Positions 10,048 to 31,180 are shown, counted from the first letter of the stretch. The stretch is 64,000 nt of DNA from Alphaproteobacteria bacterium (GCA_045605805.1 JAZUQR010000027.1:64001-128000), one strand, 5' to 3'. Notes: a model not told the origin generated them from the letters alone. Program-made: numbers and translations.

Positions 10048-10557
10048 ATGTCAAAAGACTATACATTCAACCCCGGTGATTTTGTTGTTTATCCTGCGCA
10101 TGGTGTGGGCCAAGTGACAGAACGTCAAACAACCACGGTTGCCGGACAAAATCTAGATTTAATTGCCGTGCATTTTACAAAAGATAAAATGACCATGAAG
10201 ATTCCATCAACCCAAGCCTTGGAAAAAGGTTTAAGGCAAATCGCAACCCCTGTGATGATGGAAAGCGTGGAAAAAGTTTTAAGTAAAAAGACAAAAGCAA
10301 AACGTGTTCAATGGAGCAAACGATCGGCCGAATATATCACAAAAATCGGCACAGGCGATCCAATTGCTTTGGCCGAAGTGATTCGGGATTTATATAAAGA
10401 CCCTGCTGTGGCCTCCCAAACATACAGCGAACGGCAACTTTACGAAAAGGCCATGAATCGTTTGGCACCCGAATATGCCGTTATTCTTGGCATTGCAGAA
10501 ACAGAAGCACAAGCCAAAATTGAAAGCTGTCTGCGTGGATCTGATTCGGCGGAATAA
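10048..10557 (+). CDS. carD: CarD/CdnL family RNA polymerase-binding regulator
   Basis: FNPGDFVVYPAHGVG, WSKR, KIGTGDP, EVIRDLY, YSERQLYE. Confidence 0.92.
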   Translation: MSKDYTFNPGDFVVYPAHGVGQVTERQTTTVAGQNLDLIAVHFTKDKMTMKIPSTQALEKGLRQIATPVMMESVEKVLSKKTKAKRVQWSKRSAEYITKIGTGDPIALAEVIRDLYKDPAVASQTYSERQLYEKAMNRLAPEYAVILGIAETEAQAKIESCLRGSDSAE

Positions 10558-10603: not shown

Positions 10604-11080
10604 CTATTCAATCACTTCCCCATCATATAATCCCCACATAAAACGACGAGGAAACCATCCTTCTAATTGTTCGTTTTCATAATTAAACTGCAACAAGCAA
10701 TAATCTCCCGCCGGGCAAGAATGAACTTTTGCCACTACACCTGGCTGAACATAAGCAATCACACGAGAAGAAACAGACGGCCCTGCCAAAAGTTTATCTT
10801 CGGATTGAATCACCACATAGCGCACCTCTTGCAACGCCCGTTGATGCATCCAACCAATGGTTCCATCAGCCTCACGCACTTGAAGCCAATGTTCAAAGCT
10901 GTCAATCACCTCAAAGGGATAATATCTTTCTTGATACACCCATTTAATGGGAAAGCGTTCAGCTGGCCCCGCCCGTAAATTGACTTTGTCATACCGCAAA
11001 GAACGAAAGCCTTGCTCTTGAGCATAAGCACACACCACAAAAAACATCATCAATAAACACAAAAACCTAAAAATCTTCAT
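10604..11080 (-). CDS. Secreted tandem bacterial SH3 (SH3_4-type) domain protein
   Basis: Signal peptide; FRSLRYDKVNLRAGP..FPIKWVY, W..VREADGTIGWMH; second SH3 ending EGWFPRRFMWG. Confidence 0.8.
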   Translation of the reverse strand: MKIFRFLCLLMMFFVVCAYAQEQGFRSLRYDKVNLRAGPAERFPIKWVYQERYYPFEVIDSFEHWLQVREADGTIGWMHQRALQEVRYVVIQSEDKLLAGPSVSSRVIAYVQPGVVAKVHSCPAGDYCLLQFNYENEQLEGWFPRRFMWGLYDGEVIE

Positions 11081-11636
11081 GTTTTATTTCCCCTGAGAAA
11101 CGGTGGCGAATGCTTTTTTGCGGGCGTCGGAACGAAAACATTTTATCTTGGCTTTCTTCCTGTATTTTTTCATGCAAACCCGCATTTTCCAAAATCACTT
11201 TTTGCTCATCCGTCACAGCCCCACGCTCCTGTCCATCCGAAAAGTCTTTCCAAGCCACCTGAACAGCAGGCATGACCACCAATTGAGCAATTCTATCCCC
11301 CCGATGTAATACAACCAAATGAGAAGAAGTATTTTGCACCAATACCGCCAATGGCCCTCTATCAGCCGGATGAACAAGCTGAGGCGCATCCAAAACAACC
11401 AGTCCTTCTTTTTGAGCCATATCAAAAGTACTGACCACAAAACCGCAATAACCTTCCGGCACACCAACAGCAAAACCAACCGGCACCAACGCCCGATCCC
11501 CTGGTTCCAAACGCAAAGCCGAAGGAATAGCAGCTTGAAGATTCAATCCCATATGATAAGGCGAATGATAACTGGGCAACGGCAAATCGTTTCCATCGGC
11601 AGTACGCATAATAGATAAACTTAAAACCTTGGTCAT
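11067..11636 (-). CDS. dUTPase-like protein with degenerate catalytic motifs
   Basis: LPLPSY, LEPGDRALVPVG and GDRIAQL retained; motifs 1, 2, 3 and 5 altered (GLNL, STFDMA, PQLVHPADRG, no GFGSTG). Confidence 0.75.
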   Translation of the reverse strand: MTKVLSLSIMRTADGNDLPLPSYHSPYHMGLNLQAAIPSALRLEPGDRALVPVGFAVGVPEGYCGFVVSTFDMAQKEGLVVLDAPQLVHPADRGPLAVLVQNTSSHLVVLHRGDRIAQLVVMPAVQVAWKDFSDGQERGAVTDEQKVILENAGLHEKIQEESQDKMFSFRRPQKSIRHRFSGEIKHEDF

Positions 11637-11644
11637 ACCTCTCC

Positions 11645-12628
11645 CTATGTAATTGCTGTAATTGCCCGAATATTGCCATCCCGATTGATTTGCACCACAC
11701 GCAGTTTTTCTTTCATTTCTTTATGAGTCTTTTCCTGATCCAAAGCCGGATTGGAATGCATAATCCGAGAAATAAAAGCCTGATAAGCAGCCTCAGGATT
11801 TTCGGCGTGAATCGTGGCAAAACAATTTTCATGCCCCGAGTTCATCAACTCCCAAATAGCCCCGGCATTTGTGGTAGAAATCTCTCCTCCAATAATGGCA
11901 TCAGGCGTAAAACGCACAACCAAATCCACCACTTGTTTATAATCAAACTTGTTGTTTGCTTCTGTACGAGCCAACACCAAATGCACTCGGTTGGGTTGAT
12001 GCACAATCAATTCACGGGTATCCTCAATCGTAATAATACGCTTATGTTCATCCAAAATCTTAAGCATATTATTCAAAAAAGTCGTTTTACCGGTAGCCGT
12101 TCCCCCACTGATAAGAATATGATCCCCCCGTTTAATAGAAAGCAGTAAACGGTCATAAGGATCATCCGGATCTTCCACATTTTTTAACCGATTTACTTGA
12201 CGCAACCGCCCGCCTTGAACAAGGCCAAATTGATCCAATTTAATATCCACATCCGGTTTATAAACACGAATATCCAAGGCAACGCCACCTTCCAAATCAT
12301 CATCATCATATTTCACATTCTGGCCAATAATGCCTGCAAAACGATGGCCCCCTGGAAGTTCAGTATAAACAGCCGGCACGCCCACTTCTTCTCCAAAGGG
12401 TTTGTCTTGACTGTTGGAAATGATATACATCAAATTACGCAAATACTCCCGTGTCAATTTTGGGTCTTCGTAATAATGCCACGGATGAGCATGTCTGCCC
12501 CGTAAACGCAACCAAATCCCCCCTGGGTTATTCACAGCAACATCTTCCACATTATCCTGTGAATACCAATAAGCCAAAGGTTTCAATACCATTTCTAAAA
12601 TGCGTTGCGATTCCGGCCGTTTTCCCAT
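11645..12628 (-). CDS. virB11: Type IV secretion ATPase VirB11
   Basis: DVAVNNPG, Walker A GGTATGKTT, ITIEDTREL, RFTPDAIIGGEI, SGH..CFATIHA; follows virB10. Confidence 0.9.
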   Translation of the reverse strand: MGKRPESQRILEMVLKPLAYWYSQDNVEDVAVNNPGGIWLRLRGRHAHPWHYYEDPKLTREYLRNLMYIISNSQDKPFGEEVGVPAVYTELPGGHRFAGIIGQNVKYDDDDLEGGVALDIRVYKPDVDIKLDQFGLVQGGRLRQVNRLKNVEDPDDPYDRLLLSIKRGDHILISGGTATGKTTFLNNMLKILDEHKRIITIEDTRELIVHQPNRVHLVLARTEANNKFDYKQVVDLVVRFTPDAIIGGEISTTNAGAIWELMNSGHENCFATIHAENPEAAYQAFISRIMHSNPALDQEKTHKEMKEKLRVVQINRDGNIRAITAIT

Positions 12629-12638
12629 AATTTACTCC

Positions 12639-15600
12639 TTAAAAATAACGATCATCGTCTTGATAAATAGGAGGAGAAACAGGATCAACCTTTCTGTCTT
12701 CTGTATCCTCTGGTACATAGATTTTGTCTGATTCCTCTTGCTCTTCCTCTTGTTCCTCCGTTTCTTCTTCATCAGATTTTGTTCTTTTTTCCACCCAAGA
12801 ATCATTCACAGAAGGCAATTGCGCAGCACTTGGATCACCAAGTCCTTGATCTTCCAAATCTTCCACATCATCATCCACCGAACGCAACCATAAATCCGTA
12901 TTGGAAAAAGCGGTTAAACGAGTTCCTGATGGCACATACAAAATGTTTGGAACTTCACCAGACATTTCCATAAGTTGGCCCCAAATATCCTTAAAATTAT
13001 CAATAAACATTTTGCGTATTTGAGACCCAGGAGTTTCAGATGTCGTTGTGCCATTACTAGCCGTTGAAGAAGAAGCAATCACAGATTTTTCGTTCAGTTC
13101 AGTCAATTTCAAAACAATAGCTTCACCAATACTGCTGCCCACAGGCAACAAAAACTTCCGCATCAACTGCATATCCAAATAAGCGGCCACACCCCCTCGT
13201 CCTTGTGCATCGCCCGAAACGGCTTCAAACTTAAAGGCAGCCCCATCAGGACGAATCAACCGATTCCAAGAAATATCAATTTTGGCGGCTTGATCTGTGC
13301 CAAACTCCATGGCTGAACCAGACAATGAACCAATCAACCGACTGCCGGCAGGAATCAAAATATTGCGTCCTTCTTCGGCATAAATATGTCTTTCCACAAT
13401 GGCCGTCACAGGGGCAGTTGGATATCGGGTATCAATAGAACGCACTAATACCGCCGGAATAGCCTTATCAGCCAACAACACTCTGGACATATCCACAGAC
13501 CATGTAGAAACATTTTTATCCACATCCACACTTGACCAATCCTTGTCTTTTTTGCCTTTGGCTTTGGCTTGAATGGCTTTGCCAGGAAGAATCGTTGGAA
13601 CAGACCCCATTTTTTCCTTCATTTTAAGGCGTCTCTTTTTTTGTAAATCCAAAAATTGCTCTTTAACTTCATCCGGAATCACTATTTCTTTTGGGGGTGG
13701 TGGCGGCTCTCGGTATTCAGGACTTGTTTTATCAGTCTCCCAAATATACGGACGCAGAGTAGAAGGATCCCACGCCCCAACAACCTTACCCTCACCATTC
13801 ACAAGCATTCCTGTGTCTGGATCAATTTCATATGTCTTGCCCCCCCAAGTGATTTTGCGACCACCCGCTCTTTCACCAATAGACGCCAGCCCACAACGTC
13901 TTAAATCCATGCCAAGCCCCCGGAACCATCCATAATCCGTTCCATCCGGATTATAAACCTTTCCATCTGTTGTGGAAGTTAAAATAATATCACCGGCCTC
14001 ATCACGGATATTTCCGTTGGCTTCCAAAAGCCCCATCTTTTCTTCGCCTGGAATCTTAAACAATTCACAATTAAATAATCTGGCCACCGGCTTGTTGGTT
14101 AAATCATATAGCAACACATAGTCATTCTCATCTCCAAACCCTGGCAATGTGTTTCCATACTTATCAGTCATTGTGCCTGTTGTTTGGTTATAGTATCCCA
14201 TAGAAGTACCGTCTCCAGTTTTAACCTCACCGTCTATGGATATTGTATAATCTAAAGTACCACCCGGATTAAAAATCAATCTATCTTCGTTGGAAGCCAT
14301 CCAACCAATTTTGTTACCGTTAAAATCATAGGCGTCATCATTATCCAAACCACCAATCGTTCCTTGAGGTTTACCATCTGTCCCCACAACACGGCCCATA
14401 GCGTCCACACGCCCAAACATCACTTTGTCGTTGTTAAACACAGGACCACGAGCTCTTAACCGCCCAATTGGTTCACCATTGGCATCACGCAACAATTTAT
14501 CACGTCCCACACAACCAACCACAACGCCATCCGGATTCACCACAGTTGAATCGGGTAAAGTGCGCCCCAAATATACCCCTTTTTCGGAAGTAATCGGCCC
14601 ATAACGCACAATAAAGCCCAACTCTTTACCCATAGGATCGGTAGCCACACCTTTTGGCTGCATCCGGCCAATCACATTGCCTTGACCATCCACAACCGTT
14701 CCATCATAGGCAGTTTGTCCAATAACCTTGCAAGAATTATCCACAACCAAAGTTTCTGGAAGAACACCACCCACTTCTTGCAACTTATCTTTCAAAGTTT
14801 GTGCCTCTTCAAAAGTCAAAGGAAGAGCCGCACCATTGCTGGCAAGTGCAGCAACTTCTTCGCCCGCTTCATTCACAACTTTTCCCAAACCATTCACAAA
14901 TCCCAACACAGAATTAGACAAACTCAACACAGGCAAAAACGGAACAATCTGCCCTTCCAACGGCCGTTCCTTGCCCAAAATAGTGGCATCATCCAAAATC
15001 TGATATTTCACAGAACCAGAAGCATCAATCAAATGACCATCCACGGTTGTGCGCCCTAAAACAGAAGGATTATATCCAACCGGCACCCCTTGAACAACCA
15101 AATGCCCCACATAAGGCATGGTATTATAAACAGCCGGCTCCGACACACCCGCCACACTGCCATCCGGCAACACACGCCCTTTGAAGTTCTTATCAAACAT
15201 CACCGAACCATCAGCCGTCACAACCCCAACTTTTTGGGCATAGTCATCCACAACAAACCCTGTTTTCAAAGGTCCGCCTGCCCAAATTGTTTCAGGTGTT
15301 AAAACCGAAGAAAACGCCATACGAGAACCGATTTTCTGACCATTCACACCCCACACCTGCGCACCAAAACCGGATTCTCCAATTTTTTTGCCAGCTTTGT
15401 CAATAATCGTTTCAGCATTAAAAATACCACCAATCAAAGAGCCACCTTGTTCAACAAACCCATTACCAAAAGAAGTACCAATAACTTTGCCCCCCAACCA
15501 AACAGCACCTGTCCAATCCTCCATACCAAGACTCTTTAAGTTATGTGAATTGGCAAATCCAATCTGAGCCGAAGTCCCAACAACCATTTTATCAGAATCC

Positions 15601-19100: not shown

Positions 19101-19110
19101 TGATAAATCC

Positions 19111-20769
19111 TTATTTCACCCTAATCACCGAACAAGAATAACCTCTTTTTCCTAATTTACGACACAGAGCATCGGCCATTTCTGCATTATCCAACGAACC
19201 AACACGCAACCGGAAAGTATCGGCCACGCCACCATTTGCCGCTGTATCCACAGAATAATATGGAACATATCCGCCAAGCAAATCAGCATTACTGGCATAA
19301 ATTTGTTCCCATAATTTTTCCAATTCACTAATTTCCGGTGAAGTTCCAAACTCAACCGAAATGGTTTCCTCCGGCACCACAGACAAATCAGAAACATCAT
19401 ATCCCACAGCAGGCACAGAAACAGGCGCACTGCCCCCAAAAACAGGCTCAGTGTTCACCACACCACAAGCTGTCGTTGAACCATTACAATAAGGATTGAT
19501 AGCACCTGCATAAGGATTCAATCCCCCTGTTTCGGTGGCATATCCTAAAGTCATCGCACCCGCATTCTGAGCCGGCACATAAGGATTTTGACCATGCAAT
19601 ACCGAACCACCCTTCACCGTCACTTCTGAATTCGGTACATCAGATGCCTGTACAGGCAATTGATTATGATACGCATAAGGCTGTTCGGCATAACCCGAAT
19701 AGTCGGTATATTCCAAACCGGCAGCCGGATCTCGTCTTAATTTAATACAAATCACCTTTTGTCCATTGCGCAATACCAAATCACCAATAGCTTCCACAAC
19801 AATCAATCGGCTGTTTGCGCCCCGAGTTCTAAACCCAACAGGAACTTCTGTTCCTTGAACAAGCAGGCTGACCACAGGCCGTTGTGTCATAGTTAAAGCC
19901 TTTGGCCCCAAATCAATATAAGTAAAGATATTATCCCGCCACACATTGTCCGGAGCAATATCCACATCATCCGGATTCGGCAAGAACATATCCAAATCAA
20001 ACTTTAATTGTTCAGGATCCATCGGAACCGTATTCCCCCATTCGCTTGCCTTATTTTGCGCAACCGAGTTGGCCTTTGTACTGACCGCAGTAGCCACACC
20101 AGAATGATTGATAGGCATAGAAGCCATTGTGGAAACCAACGATTCATTTTGCAACTGCCCCCCATTTGCAACGGGCGTCCATCTTGATCCCACTAACACA
20201 TCCACAACCGTTTGTGTAATTTTATCCGTATTAAAAGTTTCACTTCTTAAATAAAAAGCATAGCGATTACCGGAATGCCCAAACACAATCATATTACCAT
20301 CCACACCCAAAGAAGAAGGATCGGCATAAATCATCACAGAATTGGCCGACACAACCTCTCCATTAAAAGCATCAGGTGAACCAATATGCACTTTTTCAAT
20401 CAATTCCCACGAAGGCAAATTGATTAAAGTCATCATACCCTCCCGCACACGAATCGGCAAAACCGTATCTGGCGTCCAATTATACTTTGAATACCCTGGT
20501 TTAGATTGACCTGCCCCCATATGTGCCAAAGGATTATTCCACGCCTTTTGTTGCATCCCCAAAGCATGAATATAATCCAAATTCACATCATTATATTCAC
20601 CACTGGAAGCAGCAATAGCATCAGCAATTTGTTCTGATTGAGTATCTGTCGGCAAATGTACCTCAGCTTTAACAGAATTTGAAATCAGGCCCAAAATCCC
20701 TGTCAAAACTGGCAAAACTCCCCTAAAAAATACATTTTTATTCACCGGTTCCTCCTTATATCTAGACAT
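19111..20769 (-). CDS. virB9: VirB9/TrbG outer-membrane core protein fused to a C-terminal SPOR domain
   Basis: Signal peptide; IRVREGMMTLINLP, GNMIVF..GNRYAFYLRS, APDNVWRDNIFTYID, LVLRNGQKVICI; C-terminal FRLRVGSL..A.ALCRKL..RGYSC. Confidence 0.85.
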   Translation of the reverse strand: MSRYKEEPVNKNVFFRGVLPVLTGILGLISNSVKAEVHLPTDTQSEQIADAIAASSGEYNDVNLDYIHALGMQQKAWNNPLAHMGAGQSKPGYSKYNWTPDTVLPIRVREGMMTLINLPSWELIEKVHIGSPDAFNGEVVSANSVMIYADPSSLGVDGNMIVFGHSGNRYAFYLRSETFNTDKITQTVVDVLVGSRWTPVANGGQLQNESLVSTMASMPINHSGVATAVSTKANSVAQNKASEWGNTVPMDPEQLKFDLDMFLPNPDDVDIAPDNVWRDNIFTYIDLGPKALTMTQRPVVSLLVQGTEVPVGFRTRGANSRLIVVEAIGDLVLRNGQKVICIKLRRDPAAGLEYTDYSGYAEQPYAYHNQLPVQASDVPNSEVTVKGGSVLHGQNPYVPAQNAGAMTLGYATETGGLNPYAGAINPYCNGSTTACGVVNTEPVFGGSAPVSVPAVGYDVSDLSVVPEETISVEFGTSPEISELEKLWEQIYASNADLLGGYVPYYSVDTAANGGVADTFRLRVGSLDNAEMADALCRKLGKRGYSCSVIRVK

Positions 20770-20821
20770 GCCTTTTTTTCAGCTTATCTAAAAATGAAAT
20801 GAAAGTCCAGCAAAAAAACAA

Positions 20822-21526
20822 TTATTTATCTTTTTTTTCCAGAGAAAATCTATCCACTACAAAACCAAGCGGATTTTTTAAGCGATCAGCCCATGTCAAA
20901 TTTTTACGAGTTGGACGAAAAGAAGTTTCCAAGGTAGCAACCACTTCAAGCTCTTTGGGTTCAGCAGATGTCCGATCTGTATCAGTGAACTTTAATACAG
21001 CCGTCCATCGATCCGAACCATTTCTTCCCCCAGTGTGGGTTCTGCCCAAACTTGAAATCCGAACATTTCGGATAAAGTTGTCTTCAAAGGCCAAAGTCTG
21101 CCCCGGTTTAGATTCCTTTTCCACAAAATCATCATATACAGATTGAGAACTCATCCAAAAAACAACACCGGTAGACCCCCACCGTTCCTCCAACTCTTTC
21201 AAATCAGAACCAATACCGTAACGAGCCAACAGATATTGCCGCACCAACGATTCACTCAAATCCTTGGAATCCAATGTTTCTGCATCAGGGCGTTTAATGG
21301 CAATAATTTGCTGATCTTTATTCTGAACTTCCAAATAAAAAGGTTGCACACGCAACACAGGCGTCACATTAGCCAAAGCAATCAACAGAATAAGGTCACA
21401 CACAAGGGCCAAAACCATCATCACAACAAACGCCCGAGCCATCCACAAATAACGTTCTTCCTGCAACATGGCATGTGGTTCACGAACAGCTCTTTCTTCT
21501 GATTGAATAGGTGTATTTTCGGACAT
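20822..21526 (-). CDS. virB8: VirB8-family protein (second copy, B8b-like)
   Basis: Single N-terminal TM, VQPFYL, LVRQYLLARY, C-terminal KNPLGFVV. Confidence 0.85.
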   Translation of the reverse strand: MSENTPIQSEERAVREPHAMLQEERYLWMARAFVVMMVLALVCDLILLIALANVTPVLRVQPFYLEVQNKDQQIIAIKRPDAETLDSKDLSESLVRQYLLARYGIGSDLKELEERWGSTGVVFWMSSQSVYDDFVEKESKPGQTLAFEDNFIRNVRISSLGRTHTGGRNGSDRWTAVLKFTDTDRTSAEPKELEVVATLETSFRPTRKNLTWADRLKNPLGFVVDRFSLEKKDK

Positions 21527-21540
21527 AAAAACCCCTTATT

Positions 21541-21717
21541 TTACGAAAAATATCCCACTCCTTCAGGGGCTTTTTTCAATTCCAAACAAGCACAAGGTGA
21601 TTTTTTCAATTCAGAATACTCCATTCCAATGCCCACAGGGGCCTTTTCATAAACCGAACCACAAGCAGCCAAAACAACACCCACCAAGGCAATAACCACA
21701 TAAAAAATCTTACTCAT
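21541..21717 (-). CDS. virB7: VirB7-like small lipoprotein (58 aa)
   Basis: SD AGGAGG, lipobox LAAC, KKSPCAC motif, located between two virB8 genes. Confidence 0.7.
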   Translation of the reverse strand: MSKIFYVVIALVGVVLAACGSVYEKAPVGIGMEYSELKKSPCACLELKKAPEGVGYFS

Positions 21718-21784
21718 AAAACTTCCTCCTTTTGCCAAACATATAACTAATTTAACACAAACAAAAAAAATATCAACAAAAAAA

Positions 21785-22402
21785 TCACTTGCGTTCAGAT
21801 TCATCTACCCGAATAACCACAAAACCGTTTGGATTTGCAAAACGCTTTGCCAGCACAGCCCGAGACGGCCAATAATTAAACTCAACAACAAGTCGTTTTT
21901 GTTTTTTTTGCCACTGTAAAAAATTATCAAAGGTATATAAATCATAATCAACAGAATAATATCCAGATTCTCTTGTAACCGATAAAATATCTATGGTTTG
22001 GGGCGGCATATTGGCTATTTTTTCAAAAGAAGGATATTCTTTCAAAAAGGCCTGATAGCTGGCAGGCGAAGAAAGATAAGATAAAAGTCCATAAGCCCCC
22101 CACCTTCGTTCCATTTCTGCCACATCTGGGATACGAGTATAACGCAAGTCTAAATAATAACGCAATAACATTTCATCCGTTTGTGTGCGATTCACACCTT
22201 CCAGCGGATATATTTGCGCTAAATCCTCGTTAAAAACATTAAAAACACGATCCTTATCTTGAAAGACCTGCGCCACAACCTGTATTTGCAAAACGGCCTG
22301 AAAAACGGTCACAGTAAGGAAAAAAGTAAAAATCCACAAAACCCAACATACAAGCATAAACAAACGAGTTCTGTACCACGGACTTTGTTCCTTAAAGGAC
22401 AT
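21785..22402 (-). CDS. virB8: VirB8-family protein (first copy, B8a-like, more divergent)
   Basis: N-terminal TM, LLRYYLDLRY, ERRWG shared with the other copy, C-terminal ANPNGFVV. Confidence 0.75.
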   Translation of the reverse strand: MSFKEQSPWYRTRLFMLVCWVLWIFTFFLTVTVFQAVLQIQVVAQVFQDKDRVFNVFNEDLAQIYPLEGVNRTQTDEMLLRYYLDLRYTRIPDVAEMERRWGAYGLLSYLSSPASYQAFLKEYPSFEKIANMPPQTIDILSVTRESGYYSVDYDLYTFDNFLQWQKKQKRLVVEFNYWPSRAVLAKRFANPNGFVVIRVDESERK

Positions 22403-22413
22403 AGCAATTCTCC

Positions 22414-23580
22414 CTACAAAGGCTTGCAAAAATCAAAATTACCTTGAAGGCTTTGTGCCTGTTGTACACTTTGATTGACCATTTTTTCCGACTCTGTTTG
22501 CAGGGCAGAAATCATCTTGCGATGCGAAGTATTTTCAGCCATTTTCTGTTCTACCTCAAAAGCATTGGTTTCGGTCAAGAAAACAATACCGTTTTCATCT
22601 TTTTCCATCGCATCAATCAACACTTGTTGTCGTGCCTGTGGCGAATACTGGTCAAAACGCTGCATTTCGGCAAAAGCCTCAGGGAATTGAGATTCAACTG
22701 CTGACAACACCTGTTGTTTGGTTTTGGAACGGGTATTGCGACGAGCCGCAGCCTTTGGATACTTTTGATCTTGCAAATTTAATTTTTCAACATACGCCTT
22801 TGCCTCTTCCAAATAGACAGATTTTAGGCTCTGTAAAGATTTGCGCACTTGACGCACCTCTGACACCTTTTTGGGATCAAACGCAGGCATCTGAATACCC
22901 ACCTTGGATAATTTAGCCACAAAATCAGAAATCATTTTTTTATAAGTTTTTTCAAAATCTGATTGCGCTATCCCCATATTGTGTTTTGAATCATCTGCCA
23001 GAACAAGTTCTTCCAAACCAAAACCAACGAGATTTTCTTTAAGATCTTCCGGTACCTTCCGCTTTTTCTTATCAACAGGTTCCGCCCCCCATTTTTTGTT
23101 ATTTTCAAGGGTGTCTGTAATCAAAGCAACCTCAATATTCTTTTTGCGTTCCAACAAAGATTGGCGATCCAATGCAGAAGCGGGAAAAATGCTGTCAGGC
23201 GCATAAACCCTGTTGGATTGCATATTTTTGGTCTGTTCTTTATAAGCCGCACTAACCTTTTTCAAAACCTCTGATGCATTCTTAAACCGACCAAAGCGTT
23301 TTTCATTACATTCAAAAATCTCATCAAAATAGCTTTGAGCCTCTTTAACATTTTTCAACAGCTGATCATGTTGTTCGGCAAGCGTTTGCAAATCCGGCAA
23401 TTGAGTCATCAAATTATGCACATCCAAAGCCTTGTATAACGAGTCATTATGCTCAGGCAGAACCTTGGTTAAAGTCCGTGTTTCAATTTTAATCACAGGA
23501 GGAGCCCCAAAGCGAAGTGCCTCAGCACTGGTGCTAATCAAAACAAAAGAACAAACACAAATCAATAAAGTCTTTTTCAT
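22414..23580 (-). CDS. Secreted/periplasmic coiled-coil hypothetical protein in the T4SS cluster
   Basis: Signal peptide (SAEA), K/E/Q-rich helical sequence, tight spacing to neighbours. Confidence 0.7.
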   Translation of the reverse strand: MKKTLLICVCSFVLISTSAEALRFGAPPVIKIETRTLTKVLPEHNDSLYKALDVHNLMTQLPDLQTLAEQHDQLLKNVKEAQSYFDEIFECNEKRFGRFKNASEVLKKVSAAYKEQTKNMQSNRVYAPDSIFPASALDRQSLLERKKNIEVALITDTLENNKKWGAEPVDKKKRKVPEDLKENLVGFGLEELVLADDSKHNMGIAQSDFEKTYKKMISDFVAKLSKVGIQMPAFDPKKVSEVRQVRKSLQSLKSVYLEEAKAYVEKLNLQDQKYPKAAARRNTRSKTKQQVLSAVESQFPEAFAEMQRFDQYSPQARQQVLIDAMEKDENGIVFLTETNAFEVEQKMAENTSHRKMISALQTESEKMVNQSVQQAQSLQGNFDFCKPL

Positions 23581-23583
23581 TTT

Positions 23584-24642
23584 TTATTGCCCTCCTCCTG
23601 CAGAAAATTCAGGTCTGTTATCATTTCCAACAATTTCAAGTTCTTTTTTCAATGGCTTGAAATCAAGTTCCAAAGTTTCGGCCCGCACTTTTGTTCTGAC
23701 GGCTAAAACATTCATTTTCAAAAGCATTAAAGAATCATATAAAGCCCGTCTGGTTGCCAAAGTGTTCAACGCTTGGTTTTTGGAATTATATTGTGCCTGT
23801 ATCTTGGCATCCATCTCTGCCAAAGAAGATAACTGACGTTTCAATTCCATTGCCGAAGCCATAGCCTTAATACTGCGCTGTTGCGCCCGATAACGAATTG
23901 CCCGTTGTTCTTTGGCCACATTTTGTAAAGAACGTTGATCTTCCAAAAGTTCATTTCTGCGATATTCCATCAATTCACGAGGCGAAGCAGACGAAGCATC
24001 CTGCAAGTTTTGATACATATCTTTATCAAAAGACACTGCCTGCAAACGAGTTGGATCAATACCCAATTTATCCATAATCGCCACAATCAAATTTCTATCA
24101 GCCGGCCCAATCCATTTATCAGTCACATGGCCTTGAACCCCCGCAAAATCGGCCGTGATTTTGGTTGAATCACGCATAAACTGGTTCACCGCCGCATGTC
24201 CCAATTGAGAAACGCCAGATAACCCATCCAAAGTAATGCCCAACCCAACCCACGCAGATTCAGCATGAATAGGTGCTTGCGCTGTAGTTGTAAGGGTCTG
24301 ACTCATTTTCCAAGAAGGAAGATACTGTTTCAGCTGTTGAATCGGCCAGCCCACTGCCATACCAGTTAATGGTGTAGACAGTGCCATATCCACCATAGCC
24401 GCTGAATCACCAGCATCGCTAGAATAATCTGCACCACCAGCCGTATGTTCCACTGGAGTGGCTTCAGGATTTGATTCAGGTAAATCCTTTGAAGTATCAA
24501 AGGCCTGCGCTCGTGAAGTATCCGCTAGTGATTCTCTAGTTTCTCTACCCACTAGGAATTCTGTAATTCCAGCAGTCACCGGCATCACCAAAACACCGTT
24601 TAGCAAAGAAATCGCACAAACACCTAATAATAATTTTTTCAT
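23584..24642 (-). CDS. Secreted hypothetical protein, T4SS-associated paralog array member 5
   Basis: Signal peptide MKKLLLGVC..VTA; helical C-terminus; 4-nt overlap with the upstream gene. Confidence 0.7.
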   Translation of the reverse strand: MKKLLLGVCAISLLNGVLVMPVTAGITEFLVGRETRESLADTSRAQAFDTSKDLPESNPEATPVEHTAGGADYSSDAGDSAAMVDMALSTPLTGMAVGWPIQQLKQYLPSWKMSQTLTTTAQAPIHAESAWVGLGITLDGLSGVSQLGHAAVNQFMRDSTKITADFAGVQGHVTDKWIGPADRNLIVAIMDKLGIDPTRLQAVSFDKDMYQNLQDASSASPRELMEYRRNELLEDQRSLQNVAKEQRAIRYRAQQRSIKAMASAMELKRQLSSLAEMDAKIQAQYNSKNQALNTLATRRALYDSLMLLKMNVLAVRTKVRAETLELDFKPLKKELEIVGNDNRPEFSAGGGQ

Positions 24643-25487
24643 GCACCTTCTCCTTCTTCATCATCGGCCACATCACCTGCACCTGCCTCACCTGCACCGG
24701 CATTATCGGCCTCATCTGTTGCCGCCACATCTTCTTCTGTCATCAACAAAATGGGTTGAACACTTAAAAACTTGGCCGCATCCAGTTCCATCAATTGTAT
24801 CTGCATCACAATATCCGCCATCAAGGCCCGATTGATTGCCTTCCATGTCTGGTCCGTTCCGGAAGTCGCCCCAATAGAGCCATCCCCGTTGATATCAGAA
24901 GAAACCACATTCATATCCTCAATCAACTTTTCTTGAACGGTATAAGCCGTTTTAACATATTCCTTGGCAATTTTGGTTAAATATTTTTCTCGTTCTTTAC
25001 GAATAGCCTCCTGTTTTTCTTCTGTGGCATCGGCATTATTTTCCAAAAAGAACATCTCCTTCACAACTTGCTCCATATCGGCCGAATCAGTCAGTTTTTT
25101 ATTCAAAGGCGAATAAGGCGTTTTAATTTTATCGGTTAAATAGGTATTATGTAAATAGGTATAAGTATCCAAGGGCATAGTGCCGGAATCTGGTTTGCCT
25201 GTCCCTGGTTCAGACACATACGAAGTGGTACCATCCACCAAAGCCCCAACATCGGCCTGTGTCACATTTAACCTCGCCCCCATTTCGGGCTCTTCCCCCA
25301 AGGCCAGCAAATTTAGAAGAGCCGATCCCGTGTTACGCACAGAGTCAGTAATTGATACAGGATCTGATACTTTGTCAGGCACCACCTTCATCGTCTTAGG
25401 AGGAAGGTCCGCCCCCCACACATCCGAAACATATACGGAAGATAAACATCCCAAAGCAATCAAAAAACGAAACATAAAACTTTTCAT
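24639..25487 (-). CDS. Secreted hypothetical protein, array member 4, with acidic tail
   Basis: Signal peptide; ATEEKQEAIRKEREKYL...MELDAAKFL; 4-nt overlaps at both ends. Confidence 0.7.
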   Translation of the reverse strand: MKSFMFRFLIALGCLSSVYVSDVWGADLPPKTMKVVPDKVSDPVSITDSVRNTGSALLNLLALGEEPEMGARLNVTQADVGALVDGTTSYVSEPGTGKPDSGTMPLDTYTYLHNTYLTDKIKTPYSPLNKKLTDSADMEQVVKEMFFLENNADATEEKQEAIRKEREKYLTKIAKEYVKTAYTVQEKLIEDMNVVSSDINGDGSIGATSGTDQTWKAINRALMADIVMQIQLMELDAAKFLSVQPILLMTEEDVAATDEADNAGAGEAGAGDVADDEEGEGA

Positions 25488-26344
25488 TCTGTATCCTCCT
25501 TCAATTCAGAAACATCCACACGATCAATACCGCTGAAAATGATATTTCGATACGATTGCGCCCGTAAATCATCGGCATATAAAAATAACATATCCACCGC
25601 AGCCGAAGAAGCATAAACCGATAAATCGCCCAAACCGGCTCCAACGAATTCCGCCAAAGTCTCTTTGGCAGCCACACTGTTCACCAATTTTTCCAAATTA
25701 TCATAATTGGCATCCACATCCTGTAAATAAGAATCCGCCATACTGGATGCGGCCGTGGATGAAGCCACCAAAACCTCGTTTTGCCGTGCCTGAGCACATT
25801 CAGAAGGTTCACACTCTTCACCGGTTCCCACCGAACAGACGCAATCTTGGTTCACAGCCAAATCATCCGATACAAACATATACGAAGCCACATTCTCACG
25901 CACCCGATCAAAAGTATCGCCTTTTTTACCCATTTTATCCTTGGCATCTTCCCCCAAAACCAAAGTACCATCTTCTTCACTTTGTGTAATAATGGCAATT
26001 GTGCTGTCTGGGATAGACATAGCCAATTCTTCTGCCTTCATAATTTCTTCTTGTGCAGATTCGGGCGTTTTGGTATCACATCCTGAATTGCCGGTTGCCG
26101 ACACGCCACAATGGCCTTGCTCACGATACATCCCAATGTTTGTTTGCAACTTTTCTAACCCATTTGTCACATCATAATGAATTGTTTCCTGCTTACGATT
26201 CCATTCCCGTGCCATATAACCAAACGTCGTTTCCATAGCAGTCTGATAAAGACAACCAATAGATGGACACCAACTGGCTGCATAACAAGGGGCAGCACCA
26301 AGCAACCCTATACATCCCACCGAAACAAATAAAAGTTTTCTCAT
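25484..26344 (-). CDS. Secreted Cys-containing hypothetical protein, array member 3
   Basis: SD plus ATG 26344, signal peptide ending CYA, several Cys pairs, helical C-terminus. Confidence 0.7.
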   Translation of the reverse strand: MRKLLFVSVGCIGLLGAAPCYAASWCPSIGCLYQTAMETTFGYMAREWNRKQETIHYDVTNGLEKLQTNIGMYREQGHCGVSATGNSGCDTKTPESAQEEIMKAEELAMSIPDSTIAIITQSEEDGTLVLGEDAKDKMGKKGDTFDRVRENVASYMFVSDDLAVNQDCVCSVGTGEECEPSECAQARQNEVLVASSTAASSMADSYLQDVDANYDNLEKLVNSVAAKETLAEFVGAGLGDLSVYASSAAVDMLFLYADDLRAQSYRNIIFSGIDRVDVSELKEDTE

Positions 26345-26360
26345 AATCGTTCCCCCTTTG

Positions 26361-27467
26361 TTATTCAACCATCTGCAACGCACTGGCCGCTTCATTGGCC
26401 ACCTGTTGACCTTGCACCATATTCAACAAGTTCAATCGTTGAGCCAAAGTTAAATCCAAGCTCACCAAAACTTTTGTGTTGGCCACAACACTGCCCCCGC
26501 CCGATCCGATATAAGTAGAAAGGCGGTCAAATTGTGCTTTTTCCGAAGCCGCAAGACTGGAAGCCAAATCAGCCCGAGCCACACCAGCCGTCCCCACCAT
26601 TTGAATGTGTGCTTTTCGTCTGAAATCAGCCTTGCGCTTTTCCTCCTCAGTCATTTGATCAGAAGGGTCACTGCTGTTGAAGGAACCACCAAAAACCGAG
26701 TAATCTGAAAAAGCGGATTGCATAGAAGACCCAAAGTCTGTGATATAACCACTCCAAACAACAGAAGAATTAGATGTTTTATTGGTATCCGTGGTTATCT
26801 CTTGTAATTCGGCAGTTTTTGTGCCAAAACCCGCCTGAATCACCGGATTAGCCCCAATCAACTCTTCGGCTTGTGTTAAAGGGCTTTCGGCCACATCTTC
26901 CAAAGCCTCTAAGCCCACATTTTTCAAAGTGGAAACATGCACTTCGGTTTCATCCAAAGTTGCACTGACCATATTACAGAAAAAACCGCCTGTACCACCC
27001 GATTCTTTAATTTTTTCACATTCGGATTCAATACTGCCCAAACTACCAATATGACGAATCTGAGACTGTAATTCCGGAATATCTTTACTCCATTGGGCCT
27101 CTTTCGTGCGGGCATCATTTAATTGCACAATATCCAAAGATGCCCCCGCCACATCCCAATTCAATCCAAAAGTATCTGAACCAGTAAATACATAAGGAGT
27201 AGGCTCTCCTTCAGGAGTCACAACAACTCCAGGCTTCGATATAGAAAAGTGTGCCTGCACGAAAGAAGTCACACCAGTAATGAAACCCCAGGCCGCCAAT
27301 CCTTGACTTAATGCCTTTTGTGCTTTGGCCGTACCAGAAGAAACTTGGTTGGTTGCCAAACCACCTTGTTGCCACACCTCACCTTCTTCGGCCACGGCCA
27401 CCATCACACCGCCCGACACGCCACACAACAGCAATGCTGACATCAAAAGTTTTTTACTGAATTTCAT
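26361..27467 (-). CDS. Secreted hypothetical protein, array member 2
   Basis: SD GGAGG plus ATG 27467, signal peptide ending AVA; MTEEEKRKADFRRKAHI...ANEAASAL. Confidence 0.7.
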   Translation of the reverse strand: MKFSKKLLMSALLLCGVSGGVMVAVAEEGEVWQQGGLATNQVSSGTAKAQKALSQGLAAWGFITGVTSFVQAHFSISKPGVVVTPEGEPTPYVFTGSDTFGLNWDVAGASLDIVQLNDARTKEAQWSKDIPELQSQIRHIGSLGSIESECEKIKESGGTGGFFCNMVSATLDETEVHVSTLKNVGLEALEDVAESPLTQAEELIGANPVIQAGFGTKTAELQEITTDTNKTSNSSVVWSGYITDFGSSMQSAFSDYSVFGGSFNSSDPSDQMTEEEKRKADFRRKAHIQMVGTAGVARADLASSLAASEKAQFDRLSTYIGSGGGSVVANTKVLVSLDLTLAQRLNLLNMVQGQQVANEAASALQMVE

Positions 27468-30400
27468 TATCAACCTCCCGTTCATTCAACAACCGAGCCG
27501 CTTGCACACCCATTTGGGCCGAAGACAAAGCCACAGCACGCAAACTTTCAAGCAAGACATAGCGCCCCACATCCTGAGTCAAGCCAAACGCCCCCGCTTC
27601 ATTTTGCACACCTTCCGAGAAAGAAATCAACACATTGGCCCGATCAGCAAACTTGTTGGACACAGCGTTCATTCCTTCGGAAATCTGCACCGCCGCATTT
27701 ACATATTGTTTCAAAAGCATTTGGCGTTTTGCCTGAATCAAAGCCACCTGTTCATCGGTCAGATATTTCTTTTCATCCTCTGGTTTTTCCTCTTTTTCTT
27801 CTTCTGGCACTTCCAAAGAGGCAGAAGTCCCCGCTTGTGAGCCAGCACCAGCCAGTGTACCGGTTTGAACCACCGTTTTTGCTTCTTCTTCTTCAAAAGT
27901 TTCATCCAAAAGTTTCAAATCCACATTGGCGTTCTTTAACAATTCGGCCACAACCATTGCCGACCCCGACACAGTGCTGGGCATAGAAGCATCCACATCC
28001 ACATCCGACAAAGCCGTGTCATCCACAGTCCCCACAGCGGCACCAATCTCACCGGCCAAAACGTTCACATCCTTCCGCAAAGCAAGCTCTGTTTCCGTCA
28101 CGAACGGTGTCATAGCCACCGTACCAATCCGCACCAGATCCTGTAAATCAACCTCCCGTGGGGTTTCTGCGCCTTGTTGAACTTGATTCACCTCTGCCTC
28201 TTTGGCATCAGCTTCCGCTTTCGTCCCCTCAACAGTGGCAATTTTGTTATTAAGTTCCTCGAACTCATCGGAAGAAATCGTTTTATTATTCAAAGCATCA
28301 TACGCCAACGATCTGGCAGTCTCAAAGTCACTGCTGTTTATCGCATCAGCAAACTGATTGCTCCGAACTGTGTCATTCCTAAAGAAGTTTTCAGCAGTCG
28401 ATAAAGCAGCGCTCTTTGCTATTGTATAGTTCTTCTTCGCAGCAGTCACTATGGAATCCAGTTCAGTTATAGTAGCATTATACTTATCTATATCACCCTT
28501 TCCATCTTCTTTGGCTTTTCCTAACGCTTTCTGCGCTTCACCAAGTTCCTCTCGCGCTTTTTGAATTTCTTTCTGTGTTCCTTTCGTCACAATTAGTTTT
28601 TTCACCTTAGCCTGCGCCTCATCCACTTTTACCTGTGCCGCATCAATAGCATATTGTCTATACCTATACTGATTCGTATTTTGCGCATGGTCTTGCAACA
28701 AGCTTTGATAGCCTTTTCCGCCATTAACACTAGATAGCTGATTTATATAGTTCATAATATCAGCCCCAAAATCGTCTTCTTTTCCAGAAAAACGAATTTG
28801 CTGATTCGCTGAATCAAAAGTAATGCCATACAGATTCTTCAATGTTGCTGCTTGTTCACTTGTCATGGTATAACCATTATCCGACCAACCAAGATCCTCC
28901 CCACCCAATAAATTGCCTATCGCACTTGCGTTGTCGTGGTTCAAATCGGAATACAAAACCGCATCACCGGCCCCCATATCTGCTGCGTCCGTCAATATTT
29001 GGTTGGAGCGATTCACAATAGCATCAGAGTTTTTCTTAACTTCCTCATATGATATTTCTTCAACATTACCTTCGGCGTCAAGTTTTACGCCAGAGTCATT
29101 TTTCTCGTCGCCATCTTGGGCTTCTGCCCCTGCCTTTGCGCCACCTTCTTTGTCTTGATTTATGCTAGCCGTTACCTTTTTTTCCTCCTTTGGGTCCTCC
29201 GCTTTGGCTATATTTTTAGTTTTGGTCCCGGCCGAATCTGCATTAGCAAATTGTGTTGCTTCGGCCTTTTTGTCCGTCGTCTCATCAATCACTTCCCCTT
29301 CAGATTGAGCCGTCACTGCCTCTGGTGTGGCAACCGCGTTAATTTTTAAGCTTGATGAATCCCCGTCTTTAGTAGGGGGGACACCGCCTTGTTGAGCAGG
29401 GGGCTCATCCCCTTTCCCATCCACCTTTAGCGTTGCTACACCATTTTTGGCTTCTACTTTTGCGTTAACTCCTACAGAGCCATCCTCAGACGTTGTCTTA
29501 GCCTTCACCTGATTCTCGTTCAGCGAAGCACCAGTCCCTGTTTCAGTCCTCTTGGCTCCCACACGACTTTCTCCTGTTTCGTACCGACCAGTAGTTTGTC
29601 CATCCTTAGTCTGGGCCACATAACTACCATTGGTAAATTCTACAACAGACGAACCATCGGAAAAAACACTAACGCTTTTAACATCGTTCAAATGACTTCC
29701 ATCACCCATGATTGCCGACACGTCTGCCTGTTGTACCAAATCTTTATGCCAGAAACTTCCCGAATCCCATTTGTTCTTGCTCTCATCCCAGGTGTATGAA
29801 CGCCCATCAACGGTGATAGTCTTACTGTCGCCAGCCGTAAAGACCTCATAAACACCCCCATTTACCACAACATACTTACCCTTTGGTACTGGAGGAAGGG
29901 TTGCTGCAGATGTTTGCGAGGATGAAATAGTTGGTATTGTTCCGTCTTGTATAATCGTCTCATTCCGGGCATTGGTTTCCAACGTCACGGTCTTGTTTTG
30001 ATTGCTCAGACCTTGCTTAGCACCATCAGCAGTCACTGTCTGCCCTGTTTTAGATGTCTTTCCATTATTCGTATTGGTAGAAGTCTGTGTAACCTCATTA
30101 GCAGTAATATCCTGATTCTGTTCGCTGGAACTACCATTGCGATTATTCAGGTTCTGACTAGTCTTCACATTGTCCAGTGTCTGATTAAAAGAGCCACCTC
30201 CCTTTCCTGCTGCTGATTCCACCCTCCACGTACCTGACACTTCTTTCTCCCCTGGCCTCAAGGTCACAGAAGCATTCGCCTTCCCATCATTGGCCTTTGC
30301 AGTCAGACTATTGTCTCCCATATAGGCCGAAGCCGTTGCATTAGAATCAGCACTTATACGATTCTCCATACCAACTTTTATTTCATTTCCGCTTTTATCC

Positions 30401-31065
30401 GTATAAGATCGGGCTACAACAGTCCCTTTACCAGTGTCACCCACTGCAACCTGCGAAGGGGGAACATAATTATTTTTCCCCTCTGTTCCTTGCGCAGGAT
30501 AATATATCTTTGCCGCACCATTTACTGACTCCACATAGACATAACCAGATTGATTCTTCTTAGTGGGATCAGTTGTGACAGTCCAAGAACGGCCAAGAAC
30601 ACCACCAGCCTCCGTCACATTCACAGCGTTTGTAATATTTTGTCTGCCAGCTTCATATTGAGTCCCTTGATAGTTTATATACCGAGCTTGAGAAATCCCA
30701 CCAGAAGCGTCCCTATGATAAGTGTTGCCATTCACTGTTGTAGATGTTTCATCGTCATAAAAATTCACAACAGTCATATTACCCTTACCATTGTTCGGAT
30801 TCACCACATATGTTTGTAGTTTCACCGGACCACTGGATGAAACACGCCCATATCGTCTAGCTGTTTCATTGGCAGTATAATAACTGCCCTGTTTTAATTC
30901 TGCCGCCTTATGTGTGCTATAATAATGACCATTGGCACCTTTATACAATGTTTTACCGTTTGCAAATTGCACTTTTTCAACCTTTGCCCACACATCATTC
31001 GGCAACAACACACAGGCACTGGCCAAAACCGTGCCAACAAGCAAGACTTTAACGAAATTTCGCAT
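27454..31065 (-). CDS. Large secreted adhesin-like protein (1203 aa), array member 1
   Basis: SD GGGGAGG, signal peptide ending VWA, T/S/N/G-rich low-complexity body, coiled coil, C-terminal LTDEQVALIQAKRQMLL...VQAARLL. Confidence 0.75.
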   Translation of the reverse strand: MRNFVKVLLVGTVLASACVLLPNDVWAKVEKVQFANGKTLYKGANGHYYSTHKAAELKQGSYYTANETARRYGRVSSSGPVKLQTYVVNPNNGKGNMTVVNFYDDETSTTVNGNTYHRDASGGISQARYINYQGTQYEAGRQNITNAVNVTEAGGVLGRSWTVTTDPTKKNQSGYVYVESVNGAAKIYYPAQGTEGKNNYVPPSQVAVGDTGKGTVVARSYTDKSGNEIKVGMENRISADSNATASAYMGDNSLTAKANDGKANASVTLRPGEKEVSGTWRVESAAGKGGGSFNQTLDNVKTSQNLNNRNGSSSEQNQDITANEVTQTSTNTNNGKTSKTGQTVTADGAKQGLSNQNKTVTLETNARNETIIQDGTIPTISSSQTSAATLPPVPKGKYVVVNGGVYEVFTAGDSKTITVDGRSYTWDESKNKWDSGSFWHKDLVQQADVSAIMGDGSHLNDVKSVSVFSDGSSVVEFTNGSYVAQTKDGQTTGRYETGESRVGAKRTETGTGASLNENQVKAKTTSEDGSVGVNAKVEAKNGVATLKVDGKGDEPPAQQGGVPPTKDGDSSSLKINAVATPEAVTAQSEGEVIDETTDKKAEATQFANADSAGTKTKNIAKAEDPKEEKKVTASINQDKEGGAKAGAEAQDGDEKNDSGVKLDAEGNVEEISYEEVKKNSDAIVNRSNQILTDAADMGAGDAVLYSDLNHDNASAIGNLLGGEDLGWSDNGYTMTSEQAATLKNLYGITFDSANQQIRFSGKEDDFGADIMNYINQLSSVNGGKGYQSLLQDHAQNTNQYRYRQYAIDAAQVKVDEAQAKVKKLIVTKGTQKEIQKAREELGEAQKALGKAKEDGKGDIDKYNATITELDSIVTAAKKNYTIAKSAALSTAENFFRNDTVRSNQFADAINSSDFETARSLAYDALNNKTISSDEFEELNNKIATVEGTKAEADAKEAEVNQVQQGAETPREVDLQDLVRIGTVAMTPFVTETELALRKDVNVLAGEIGAAVGTVDDTALSDVDVDASMPSTVSGSAMVVAELLKNANVDLKLLDETFEEEEAKTVVQTGTLAGAGSQAGTSASLEVPEEEKEEKPEDEKKYLTDEQVALIQAKRQMLLKQYVNAAVQISEGMNAVSNKFADRANVLISFSEGVQNEAGAFGLTQDVGRYVLLESLRAVALSSAQMGVQAARLLNEREVDNEIQ

Positions 31066-31099
31066 AAAAACCTCCCCTTAAAAAAAGTACTTTTAATTC

Positions 31100-31128
31100 A
31101 CTGTACATACTTTTTTGATGCATTGCAA
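31100..31128 (-). promoter_or_regulatory. sigma70-type promoter heading the T4SS cluster
   Basis: TTGCAA-N17-TACAGT on the - strand, ~35 nt upstream of the ATG. Confidence 0.55.
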
Positions 31129-31147: not shown

Positions 31148-31180
31148 AAAAAAAAACGCCCGCAAAGTGACGTTTTTTTC
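31148..31180 (-). terminator. Probable infC terminator separating it from the T4SS cluster
   Basis: On - strand: AAAAAAACGTCACTTTGCGGGCGTTTTTTTTT imperfect hairpin plus T-tract. Confidence 0.5.

Follow-up and report, generated by a model that had tools for sequence, protein, structure and literature searches.

Among host-interaction type IV secretion systems (T4SSs), Helicobacter CagY and Legionella DotG are VirB10 homologues enlarged by long internal repeats. The rvh T4SS of Rickettsiales is another described system that resembles, in outline, the one reported here. The section of PMC11077975 on its hallmarks lists duplications of VirB8, VirB4 and VirB9, a multicopy VirB6 and no VirB5 analogue. 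For Rickettsia, the sections of PMC2653234 on these genes describe two virB8 on opposite strands with mirrored virB9, a degenerate NPxG motif in VirB8a, a [KI]KSP motif beside the second Cys of VirB7 (and of ComB7), and, in Table 1, a VirB10 of 481 amino acids (aa) in R. typhi. Here, we analysed a T4SS gene cluster in a stretch of 64,000 nucleotides (nt) from an alphaproteobacterium (GCA_045605805.1, JAZUQR010000027.1:64001-128000), hereafter the window. It corresponds to positions 64001-128000 of contig C27 in a genome of 1,212,651 bp and 31 contigs, 98.85% complete by marker genes. The cluster encodes the core components of a T4SS with a giant VirB10, in a design that is common to many uncultured animal-gut relatives and not described in the literature found. 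We consider it likely that this is a vertically inherited, domesticated chromosomal P-type T4SS, serving protein delivery or cell contact and not DNA conjugation.

The window cluster and its giant VirB10

By open reading frame (ORF) calls and Pfam matches, 14 minus-strand ORFs are packed into window positions 10604-31065 (Table 1), with adjacent genes overlapping by up to 35 nt or lying up to 67 nt apart. The neighbors are the core genes carD and infC, the latter read from the sequence, and the guanine-cytosine content is 0.40-0.46 in the cluster, against 0.34-0.45 across the contigs. An original prediction, based on this DNA alone, had proposed the 14 tightly packed genes, the chromosomal site between carD and infC, a giant repeat-bearing VirB10, six secreted proteins, and the order virB8, lipoprotein, virB8, virB9-SPOR and virB11; these identities agree with the ORF calls, Pfam, hhalign and orthologue alignments. 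From the expression signals that it proposed, a terminator-like hairpin of infC was found, while the candidate promoter (TTGCAA-17-TACAGT) has only 8 of 12 matching positions, stayed below the scan threshold and was not called.

VirB10 is four times the usual size. It contains a transmembrane helix (residues ~18-36), an ASH domain, immunoglobulin-like (80-165), the repeats (231-1780), a Pro/Lys linker, a TrbI barrel (1875-2072) and an acidic tail. The repeat region of ~1550 aa follows a strict 17-residue period of beta-hairpins, which Pfam reads as the beta-flower fold, placed in the Tubby clan in the part of PMC10584680 that treats it. The C-terminus fits the ComB10 model (1.8e-21) and the VirB10 model (4.4e-22) about equally. 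At least 300 homologue clusters have the same architecture (Bflower plus TrbI) and, among the 120 homologues listed, lengths range from 2063 to 2609 aa, with two exceptions (1235 and 1431 aa). In comparison with four orthologues, the repeats are 30-53% identical and the TrbI domain 51-78%. Where VirB11 is 93% identical, the repeats reach 53% and the secreted proteins 38-50%. The sequence of the VirB10 repeats drifts while their length is kept, and from these alignments the presumably exposed parts of the system evolve fast.

The remaining core components are more ordinary in size. VirB7 has the lipobox LAAC followed by SELKKSPCAC, and all 24 orthologues keep a lipobox and the motif SELK[KRLVQ]SPCAC. 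The family profile of VirB8b matches the Bartonella VirB8 chains 4MEI, 4KZ1 and 4LSO (E 6e-12 to 4e-11). VirB8a is a true VirB8 paralogue according to its hhalign comparison with the VirB8b family (probability 100, E 3e-40); it retains NPxG, and N199, P200 and G202 are invariant across 24 sequences. When VirB8a, VirB8b and VirB9 were searched as single sequences against the PDB, only matches with E > 0.1 were obtained. The CagX domain of VirB9 is found in 24/24 orthologues and the SPOR domain in 20/24 (best E 2.6e-6), the SPOR match of the window protein itself being weak (20.7 bits versus a 21-bit cut-off). In VirB11, the Walker A motif is intact (GGTATGKTT). The genome has a third VirB8-like ORF, which stands alone among housekeeping genes (C24:8796-9614, minus strand), encodes 272 aa and shows 25% identity to VirB8b over 159 aa and no Pfam match.

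Table 1. Components of the T4SS and adjacent features. Positions without a contig name are those of the window; C27 is the contig containing it.
Feature	Position	Strand	Evidence or remark
VirB10, 2153 aa	12639-19100	-	ASH; seven significant Bflower_2 stretches (E 1.9e-64); TrbI (E 2.9e-24)
VirB11 ATPase	11645-12628	-	T2SSE E 7.7e-22; NCBIfam VirB11 E 4.6e-44, under curated cut-off
VirB9 with C-terminal SPOR-like (peptidoglycan-binding) domain	19111-20769	-	CagX E 1.2e-16; SPOR E 5e-4
VirB8b, canonical VirB8	20822-21526	-	Pfam E 1.6e-16
VirB7, small lipoprotein	21541-21804 (ORF)	-	True start probably 21717 (internal Met), giving 21541-21717, 58 aa
VirB8a, divergent paralogue	21785-22429	-	Pfam VirB8 weak, E 2e-3
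g06, 388 aa, secreted	22414-23580	-	Family B; always directly upstream of VirB8a
g05, 352 aa, secreted	23584-24642	-	Distant family-A paralogue
g04, 282 aa, secreted	24639-25487	-	Family A; candidate VirB5-like
g03, 303 aa, secreted	25484-26395	-	Cys-rich; detected only within genus
g02, 374 aa, secreted	26361-27485	-	Detected only within genus; orthologues in 4/4 same-genus loci
g01, 1203 aa, secreted	27454-31065	-	First gene; N-terminal half Ser/Thr/Asn/Gly-rich, C-terminal part helical
VirB2	C27:24324-24662		Outside the cluster
VirB3-like, 105 aa	in C27:222406-225173		Overlaps front of VirB4; position and 36% identity
VirB4, 817 aa	C27:222720-225173		PF03135 E 3.2e-11; single copy, next to gatCAB
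VirB6-like, three tandem ORFs (601, 447, 788 aa)	C26:13848-19356		Two match TrbL
VirD4, 738 aa	C4:1648-3864		PF02534 E 2.4e-54
dUTPase-like	11067-11636	-	dUTPase fold; begins 8 nt past VirB11 end
SH3_4 protein, secreted	10604-11080	-	Overlaps dUTPase-like gene by 14 nt
CarD	10048-10557	+	Flanking gene
Terminator-like hairpin and T-run	31148-31181	-	3' of infC, upstream of cluster
infC/IF-3	31201-31767	-	Flanking gene

All six proteins encoded upstream of VirB8a have K/R-hydrophobic-AxA, Sec-type N-termini, read by eye, and none belongs to a Pfam or NCBIfam family. By BLAST, no relatives of g01, g02, g03 and g05 are recognised outside the genus, and there the conservation of g01 is confined, within the genus, to its C-terminal ~230 aa (33-38% identity). 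The other two represent families found order-wide. Family A, a BLAST cluster that includes g04, has 35 proteins across the examined loci, in 1-3 copies per locus, and 208 representatives among 1.84 billion proteins at E<=1e-3. By hhalign, g05 also aligns with a family-A alignment (A1) over 135 residues (probability 92.5%, E 5e-7). Family B, represented by g06, has 14 members in 14 loci, with C91 and C385 invariant and a CLNGG-like C-terminal motif in most; it has no Pfam or PDB sequence match. A relationship between both families was looked for and none was found, and their profiles returned nothing credible from the PDB.

This secreted array occupies the VirB5/VirB6 slot of relatives with contiguous clusters. 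We found a weak similarity (blastp 4e-4, hhalign 68.7%) between g04 and the protein that follows VirB4 in a Sphingosinicella plasmid, which in turn matches the VirB5 family PF07996 below the threshold (E 0.016). In the related families f19, f24, f108 and f58, described below, secreted proteins directly follow VirB4, and that of f24 matches an array protein of the window's order (E 3.5e-7). On the other side, PF07996 matched 0/32 family-A members and 0/83 of their wider homologues, and nothing in the genome, though positive controls failed to match too; in a protein atlas, g04 had scores below 0.9 and no family. Judged by these comparisons, the arguments for and against family A being VirB5-like are evenly balanced.

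A separate observation concerns g05. Within 23599-24042, DNA contigs from two public gut/faeces runs differ at dozens of sites in ~450 bp, while the neighbouring genes differ far less. This suggests that the segment is a hypervariable part of a secreted protein at the strain level.

The complete system and its relatives

The T4SS parts are distributed over five loci, the window cluster and four others (VirB2; VirB3-VirB4; VirB6-like; VirD4). The original prediction had placed virB2/3/4/6 and virD4 outside the window and made its reading depend on VirB4 and VirB6 existing in the genome; all of them were located elsewhere in it. The genome holds a complete P-type (VirB/D4) parts list: VirB4, VirB2, VirB3, VirB6-VirB11 and VirD4. 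The T4SS NCBIfam scores are all under the curated cut-offs, the VirB4 falls only in generic VirB4 clusters of the protein atlas, and the VirB3-like protein, 36% identical to the ORF before VirB4 in another family, has no Pfam match. The original prediction had seen no relaxase, integrase or oriT beside the cluster. No relaxase was found in the genome either, with PF03432, PF08751 and PF03389, the three chief relaxase families of proteobacteria, each giving 0 matches and other MOB families lying outside the search. For these three families, the relaxase that identifies a conjugative T4SS is lacking in a genome 98.85% complete.

Some neighbors of these loci deserve a comment. A nuclease-related (NERD) membrane protein is encoded directly upstream of VirD4 (C4:3866-5014, minus strand), and in f19 (L091 1864-4075) two NERD paralogues are found at the same place by VirD4; this protein is possibly an accessory part or a substrate of the T4SS. 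An XRE-type helix-turn-helix protein (C26:19390-20433) adjoins the VirB6 genes, and one with a similar N-terminus occurs in Candidatus Enterousia (L096 5516-6523), ~5 kb from a solitary VirB11, so a shared regulator is possible. Prepilin-like N-termini (GRSMVEMLGVLAIIGVL) begin many ORFs, with matches on eight contigs (C4:151-516, C27:225174-227138, C10, C3, C20, C24, C8 and C18), and a type IV pilus-like ATPase and platform cluster (C27:26427-33309) is found near VirB2. The 654-aa prepilin-like ORF directly behind VirB4 was rejected as a part of the system since it is not conserved, other genera having ppa there.

The window's order was sampled with 80 species genomes, which comprise one family, 16 genera and sizes of 0.7-2.0 Mb; the genomes here are metagenome-assembled genomes (MAGs). 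A VirB11 match is present in 79/80, exactly one VirB9 (PF03524) in 76/80, the window's genome among them, and VirD4 in 80/80. Relaxases are almost missing, with MobA/MobL in 0/80, PF03432 over the cut-off in 1/80 plus one weak match, and TrwC in 1/41. One full-length VirB4 is found in 40/41 genomes of the family, three genomes adding a fragment-like ORF of 368-393 aa, and relatives have up to three TrbL/VirB6 matches per genome. Gene order was compared in 20 loci from 14 genera, and in all 18 reaching far enough (L046 and L052 end early) the order B8a-B7-B8b-B9-giant B10-B11 is kept. The window's genus has a single VirD4-like ORF, and most of the other genera have a pair of them, of ~715-780 aa each.

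A VirB11 search of genome contigs recovered 27 loci, almost all from Alphaproteobacteria MAGs and several from goat, sheep, yak, roe deer or rumen; by contig names, relatives also occur in human-gut metagenomes. From 401 alphaproteobacterial genomes sampled for VirB4, identity to the window's protein is 66-67% in its own family, 47-63% in another eleven, whose genomes measure 0.9-2.5 Mb (f39, f24, f19, f58, f108, f160, f56, f79, f32, f3 and f207), 38-42% in six further families and 33% or less elsewhere. The two VirB4 matches of f3 are halves of one gene split across contigs. The same B8a-B11 order with a VirB8 pair is found in f39, f58, f108, f19 and f24, and one VirB8 was detected in f79. 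A giant VirB10, with VirD4 not behind VirB11, is present in f39 (2427-2446 aa), f19 (2222 and 2676 aa), f79 (1930 aa), f24 (2831 aa), f58 and f108 (each with two large ORFs side by side), and f56 and f3 (partial). In f17 and four of the six 38-42% families, VirB10 is of normal size (505-579 aa) and VirD4 comes after VirB11. In two other loci (L098 of f154 and L099 of f22), genes for a pilus-type ATPase, a platform protein and pilin-like proteins lie between VirB9 and VirB11. Family f78 corresponds to Candidatus Enterousia, a name carried by an 86%-identity match, and on this identification an assignment of the window's order to Rs-D84 was given up; the VirB4 matches of f132, from the 38-42% tier, are Telmatospirillum, Dongiaceae and Rhodospirillaceae.

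A VirB4 tree of 54 rows was obtained by a quick LG+G4 search, with SH-like approximate likelihood-ratio test (SH-aLRT) support and no named Rickettsiales sequence included. A branch with a support of 100 separates the 23 gut-clade rows from the rest, and families are monophyletic. The giant-VirB10 families are a clade (support 99), which includes f160 and f32, where VirB10 was not verified, and f207 plus Enterousia are its sister group (support 100). The node that comes after, which is unresolved, holds two plasmids, and is followed by a clade of f132 and four more families with 38-42% identity. A tree constrained to place the plasmids inside the giant clade was rejected by the approximately unbiased test (p-AU 2.5e-6), the group having been named after the tree was seen. 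On this tree, the system belongs to a clade of small-genome alphaproteobacteria whose named or sourced members are from animal guts.

The two plasmids are the best plasmid matches by VirB4, Microvirga pMVF16-3 (39%) and Sphingosinicella p1 (36%), and both have a contiguous B2-B3-B4...B7-B8-B9-B10-B11-D4 cluster beside a MobA/MobL gene. They resemble the window in their VirB7 (LKKSPCAC and LKRTPCAC, respectively), in the long C-terminal tail of VirB9 with a Cys pair and, in Microvirga, in the ASH-like N-terminal domain of VirB10; a secreted protein also follows their VirB4. However, they differ in being contiguous and next to a relaxase, with VirD4 behind VirB11, a single VirB8, a VirB10 of only ~550-590 aa and a position outside the gut clade. 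The original prediction had named nesting within plasmid clades as evidence against it. The clade itself does not nest there, while the wider group does include relaxase-linked plasmid systems.

The system was not described in the literature that we found on RF32, Rs-D84, CAG-239 with T4SS, Enterousia and DUF3659, of which the supplements might bear on this. No T4SS is mentioned in PMC12306168, a paper on the related order Rs-D84.

Affinity, function and alternative explanations

One explanation is that the system is a member of the Rickettsiales rvh group by specific ancestry, injecting effectors into a eukaryotic host. Both are chromosomal, devoid of relaxase and scattered as an archipelago of several loci in a small or reduced genome, and share a VirB8 pair around a KKSP-Cys VirB7 and several large VirB6-like paralogues; the genome also lacks a VirB5 Pfam match, with the caveat on positive controls given above. 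On the other hand, VirB4 and VirB9 are single (no second VirB9 was found in the genome by tblastn), VirD4 is on another contig and not behind VirB11, and the two VirB8 genes lie on the same strand, both with NPxG, instead of the opposite-strand mirror of Rickettsia. Further differences from rvh are VirB10 (2153 versus 481 aa), the SPOR domain of VirB9, the secreted and possibly VirB5-like array, and a genome with no ATP/ADP translocase. The system works like rvh in outline, but two listed hallmarks, the VirB4 and VirB9 duplications, are missing, and we do not file it as rvh.

The original prediction had seen a Rickettsiales ordering here, of which the VirB8 pair flanking a K/R-S-P-C VirB7 stands. 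The rvh framing is only partly supported, VirB4 and VirB9 being single and VirD4 unlinked. The motif is not diagnostic of rvh, because the relaxase-linked Microvirga and Sphingosinicella plasmids carry it too, and the tail of VirB9 is likewise found in plasmid systems. Among the nearest relatives, those with a name are Candidatus Enterousia, Telmatospirillum, Dongiaceae, Rhodospirillaceae and the two plasmids, that is, Enterousia and Rhodospirillales-like lineages with none from Rickettsiales. The TLC transporter marked 50/401 sampled genomes, including 0/4 of the window's family and, among the families with VirB4 matches, only f175. PF03135 had no match in 12 TLC-positive small genomes, which probably reflects the sensitivity of the first-look filter and not absence. 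A weaker point is that R. typhi RvhB8-II (4O3V, PMC4676284), itself a divergent paralogue, is not in the matches of the VirB8b profile at E<=1. Specific descent from rvh is, in our assessment, very unlikely, though the two systems may be deeply related.

As in the original prediction, a vertically inherited interaction machine is favored over conjugation by the chromosomal site between core genes, the lack of relaxase, the full parts list and the order-wide conservation. Some observations weigh against this reading. The relaxase search covered three families, and plasmids are often not binned in MAGs. Outside the clade, the closest homologues with a name come from relaxase-linked plasmid systems, so DNA transfer is ancestral in the wider group. 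No substrate or effector was identified for the T4SS. Only one ankyrin match over the cut-off and four weak ones were found in the genome. No TLC transporter was found, which gives no sign of life as an intracellular energy parasite. The evidence of expression is weak, comprising short contigs of one metatranscriptome run over parts of VirB10, VirB9 and g05, for which DNA carry-over is possible. Positions 29209-30542 have low cover in DNA runs and parts of the cluster have no cover in the RNA run, which we do not interpret.

Conjugation itself, DNA uptake by a ComB-like system, or a decaying remnant is the least probable explanation, and we hold it highly improbable. It gains some credit from the MobA/MobL-linked plasmid systems of the wider group, with VirB4 35-39% identical, from the nearly equal ComB10 and VirB10 scores of the VirB10 C-terminus, and from the VirB7 motif shared with ComB7 in the relevant section of PMC2653234. 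But relaxases are missing from the genome for the three families and almost missing from the order, and the genes are intact and conserved over 16 or more genera whose genomes (0.7-2.0 Mb) are under reduction, which argues against decay. VirD4 and VirB11 are also retained, neither of which the Helicobacter ComB system is known to have.

Another possibility, which we regard as doubtful although not negligible, is that the system targets bacteria, either as a killing T4SS like the Xanthomonas X-T4SS or as the attachment or feeding device of an epibiotic parasite of gut bacteria. The dense habitat, the small genome, the many prepilin-like genes with the type IV pilus-like ATPase and platform, and the absence of TLC with few eukaryote-like repeat proteins are consistent with it. 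So is the partner-dependent lifestyle proposed for the related order Rs-D84 (PMC12306168), and bacteria killing is proposed as the ancestral role of such systems in the pertinent part of PMC9352585. Against it, the target is not identified by any data, and toxin-immunity pairs and peptidoglycan-binding or XVIPCD-like effectors were not found, though no search aimed at them was made. The lack of TLC, the few ankyrins and the many pilin-like genes make us lean slightly towards an extracellular or epibiotic life.

For the protein delivery or cell contact machine that we prefer, the window cluster would be the operon of the outer-membrane/periplasmic core plus an ATPase. VirB7, VirB9 and VirB10 would form the usual outer-membrane core, with the SPOR tail of VirB9 tethering it to peptidoglycan. 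Each VirB10 subunit would insert ~1550 beta-hairpin residues between its inner-membrane anchor and its outer-membrane barrel, and the repeats may build a large additional assembly in the periplasm or at the surface, by analogy with CagY and DotG in the Cag and Dot/Icm systems. The likeness to Cag and Dot/Icm lies in the enlarged repeat-bearing VirB10 and the extra system-specific secreted parts, whereas the 17-residue beta-flower hairpins are unrelated to the repeats of CagY and DotG, and the rest of the window's system is a plain VirB set. The fast-evolving secreted proteins in the former VirB5/VirB6 slot may be pilus-tip or adhesin-like and set partner specificity, while VirB4, VirB11 and VirD4 would power substrate transfer. 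Candidate targets are a bacterium, a protist or the animal epithelium.

A bolder proposal, which we offer only tentatively and think rather unlikely in its full form, is that a large radiation of uncultured small-genome alphaproteobacteria, with Candidatus Enterousia among its animal-gut lineages and with members in human-gut metagenomes, domesticated a conjugation machine of plasmid type and so gave rise to a T4SS class of new architecture. The ~90 beta-hairpins per VirB10, Tubby-like and possibly lipid-binding, would make a giant extracellular or periplasm-spanning structure that, with hypervariable VirB5-like adhesins, docks onto and penetrates a partner membrane, as the organelle on which an obligate epibiotic or host-attached life depends.

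Alphaproteobacteria of ~1-2 Mb are common in ruminant guts and none is cultured. A universally conserved, relaxase-free T4SS with a giant VirB10 and rapidly evolving secreted parts is the most obvious candidate for the organelle tying this lineage to a partner, and a concrete handle for finding that partner. Alongside CagY and DotG, it would be a third instance of an enlarged VirB10, arisen independently and built from a recently described fold, the beta-flower. The relatives may also form a plasmid-to-chromosome domestication series in one gene family, from contiguous clusters with a relaxase, through contiguous ones without it, to split ones.

Other genes of the window

The last two genes of the cluster were originally predicted to encode a pseudo-dUTPase and an SH3 protein, and both assignments hold. 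Motifs 1, 2, 3 and 5 are degenerate in the dUTPase-like protein, under the usual definitions of the dUTPase motifs, and a canonical dut with all motifs is found elsewhere (C21:32514-32969). By its motifs, the dUTPase-like gene appears to be a catalytically degenerate paralogue. The SH3_4 domain is recognised in the last gene by its domain match. Of the 27 related loci, only 6 have these two genes 3' of VirB11.

Outside the cluster, a single ORF of 1077 aa on the plus strand (41069-44302) contains an LptF/LptG permease (residues 6-351) followed by LptD_N and LptD (398-1011). Such a combination of an inner-membrane permease with the outer-membrane lipopolysaccharide translocon would be topologically odd, and it may either be genuine or result from an assembly or frame error.

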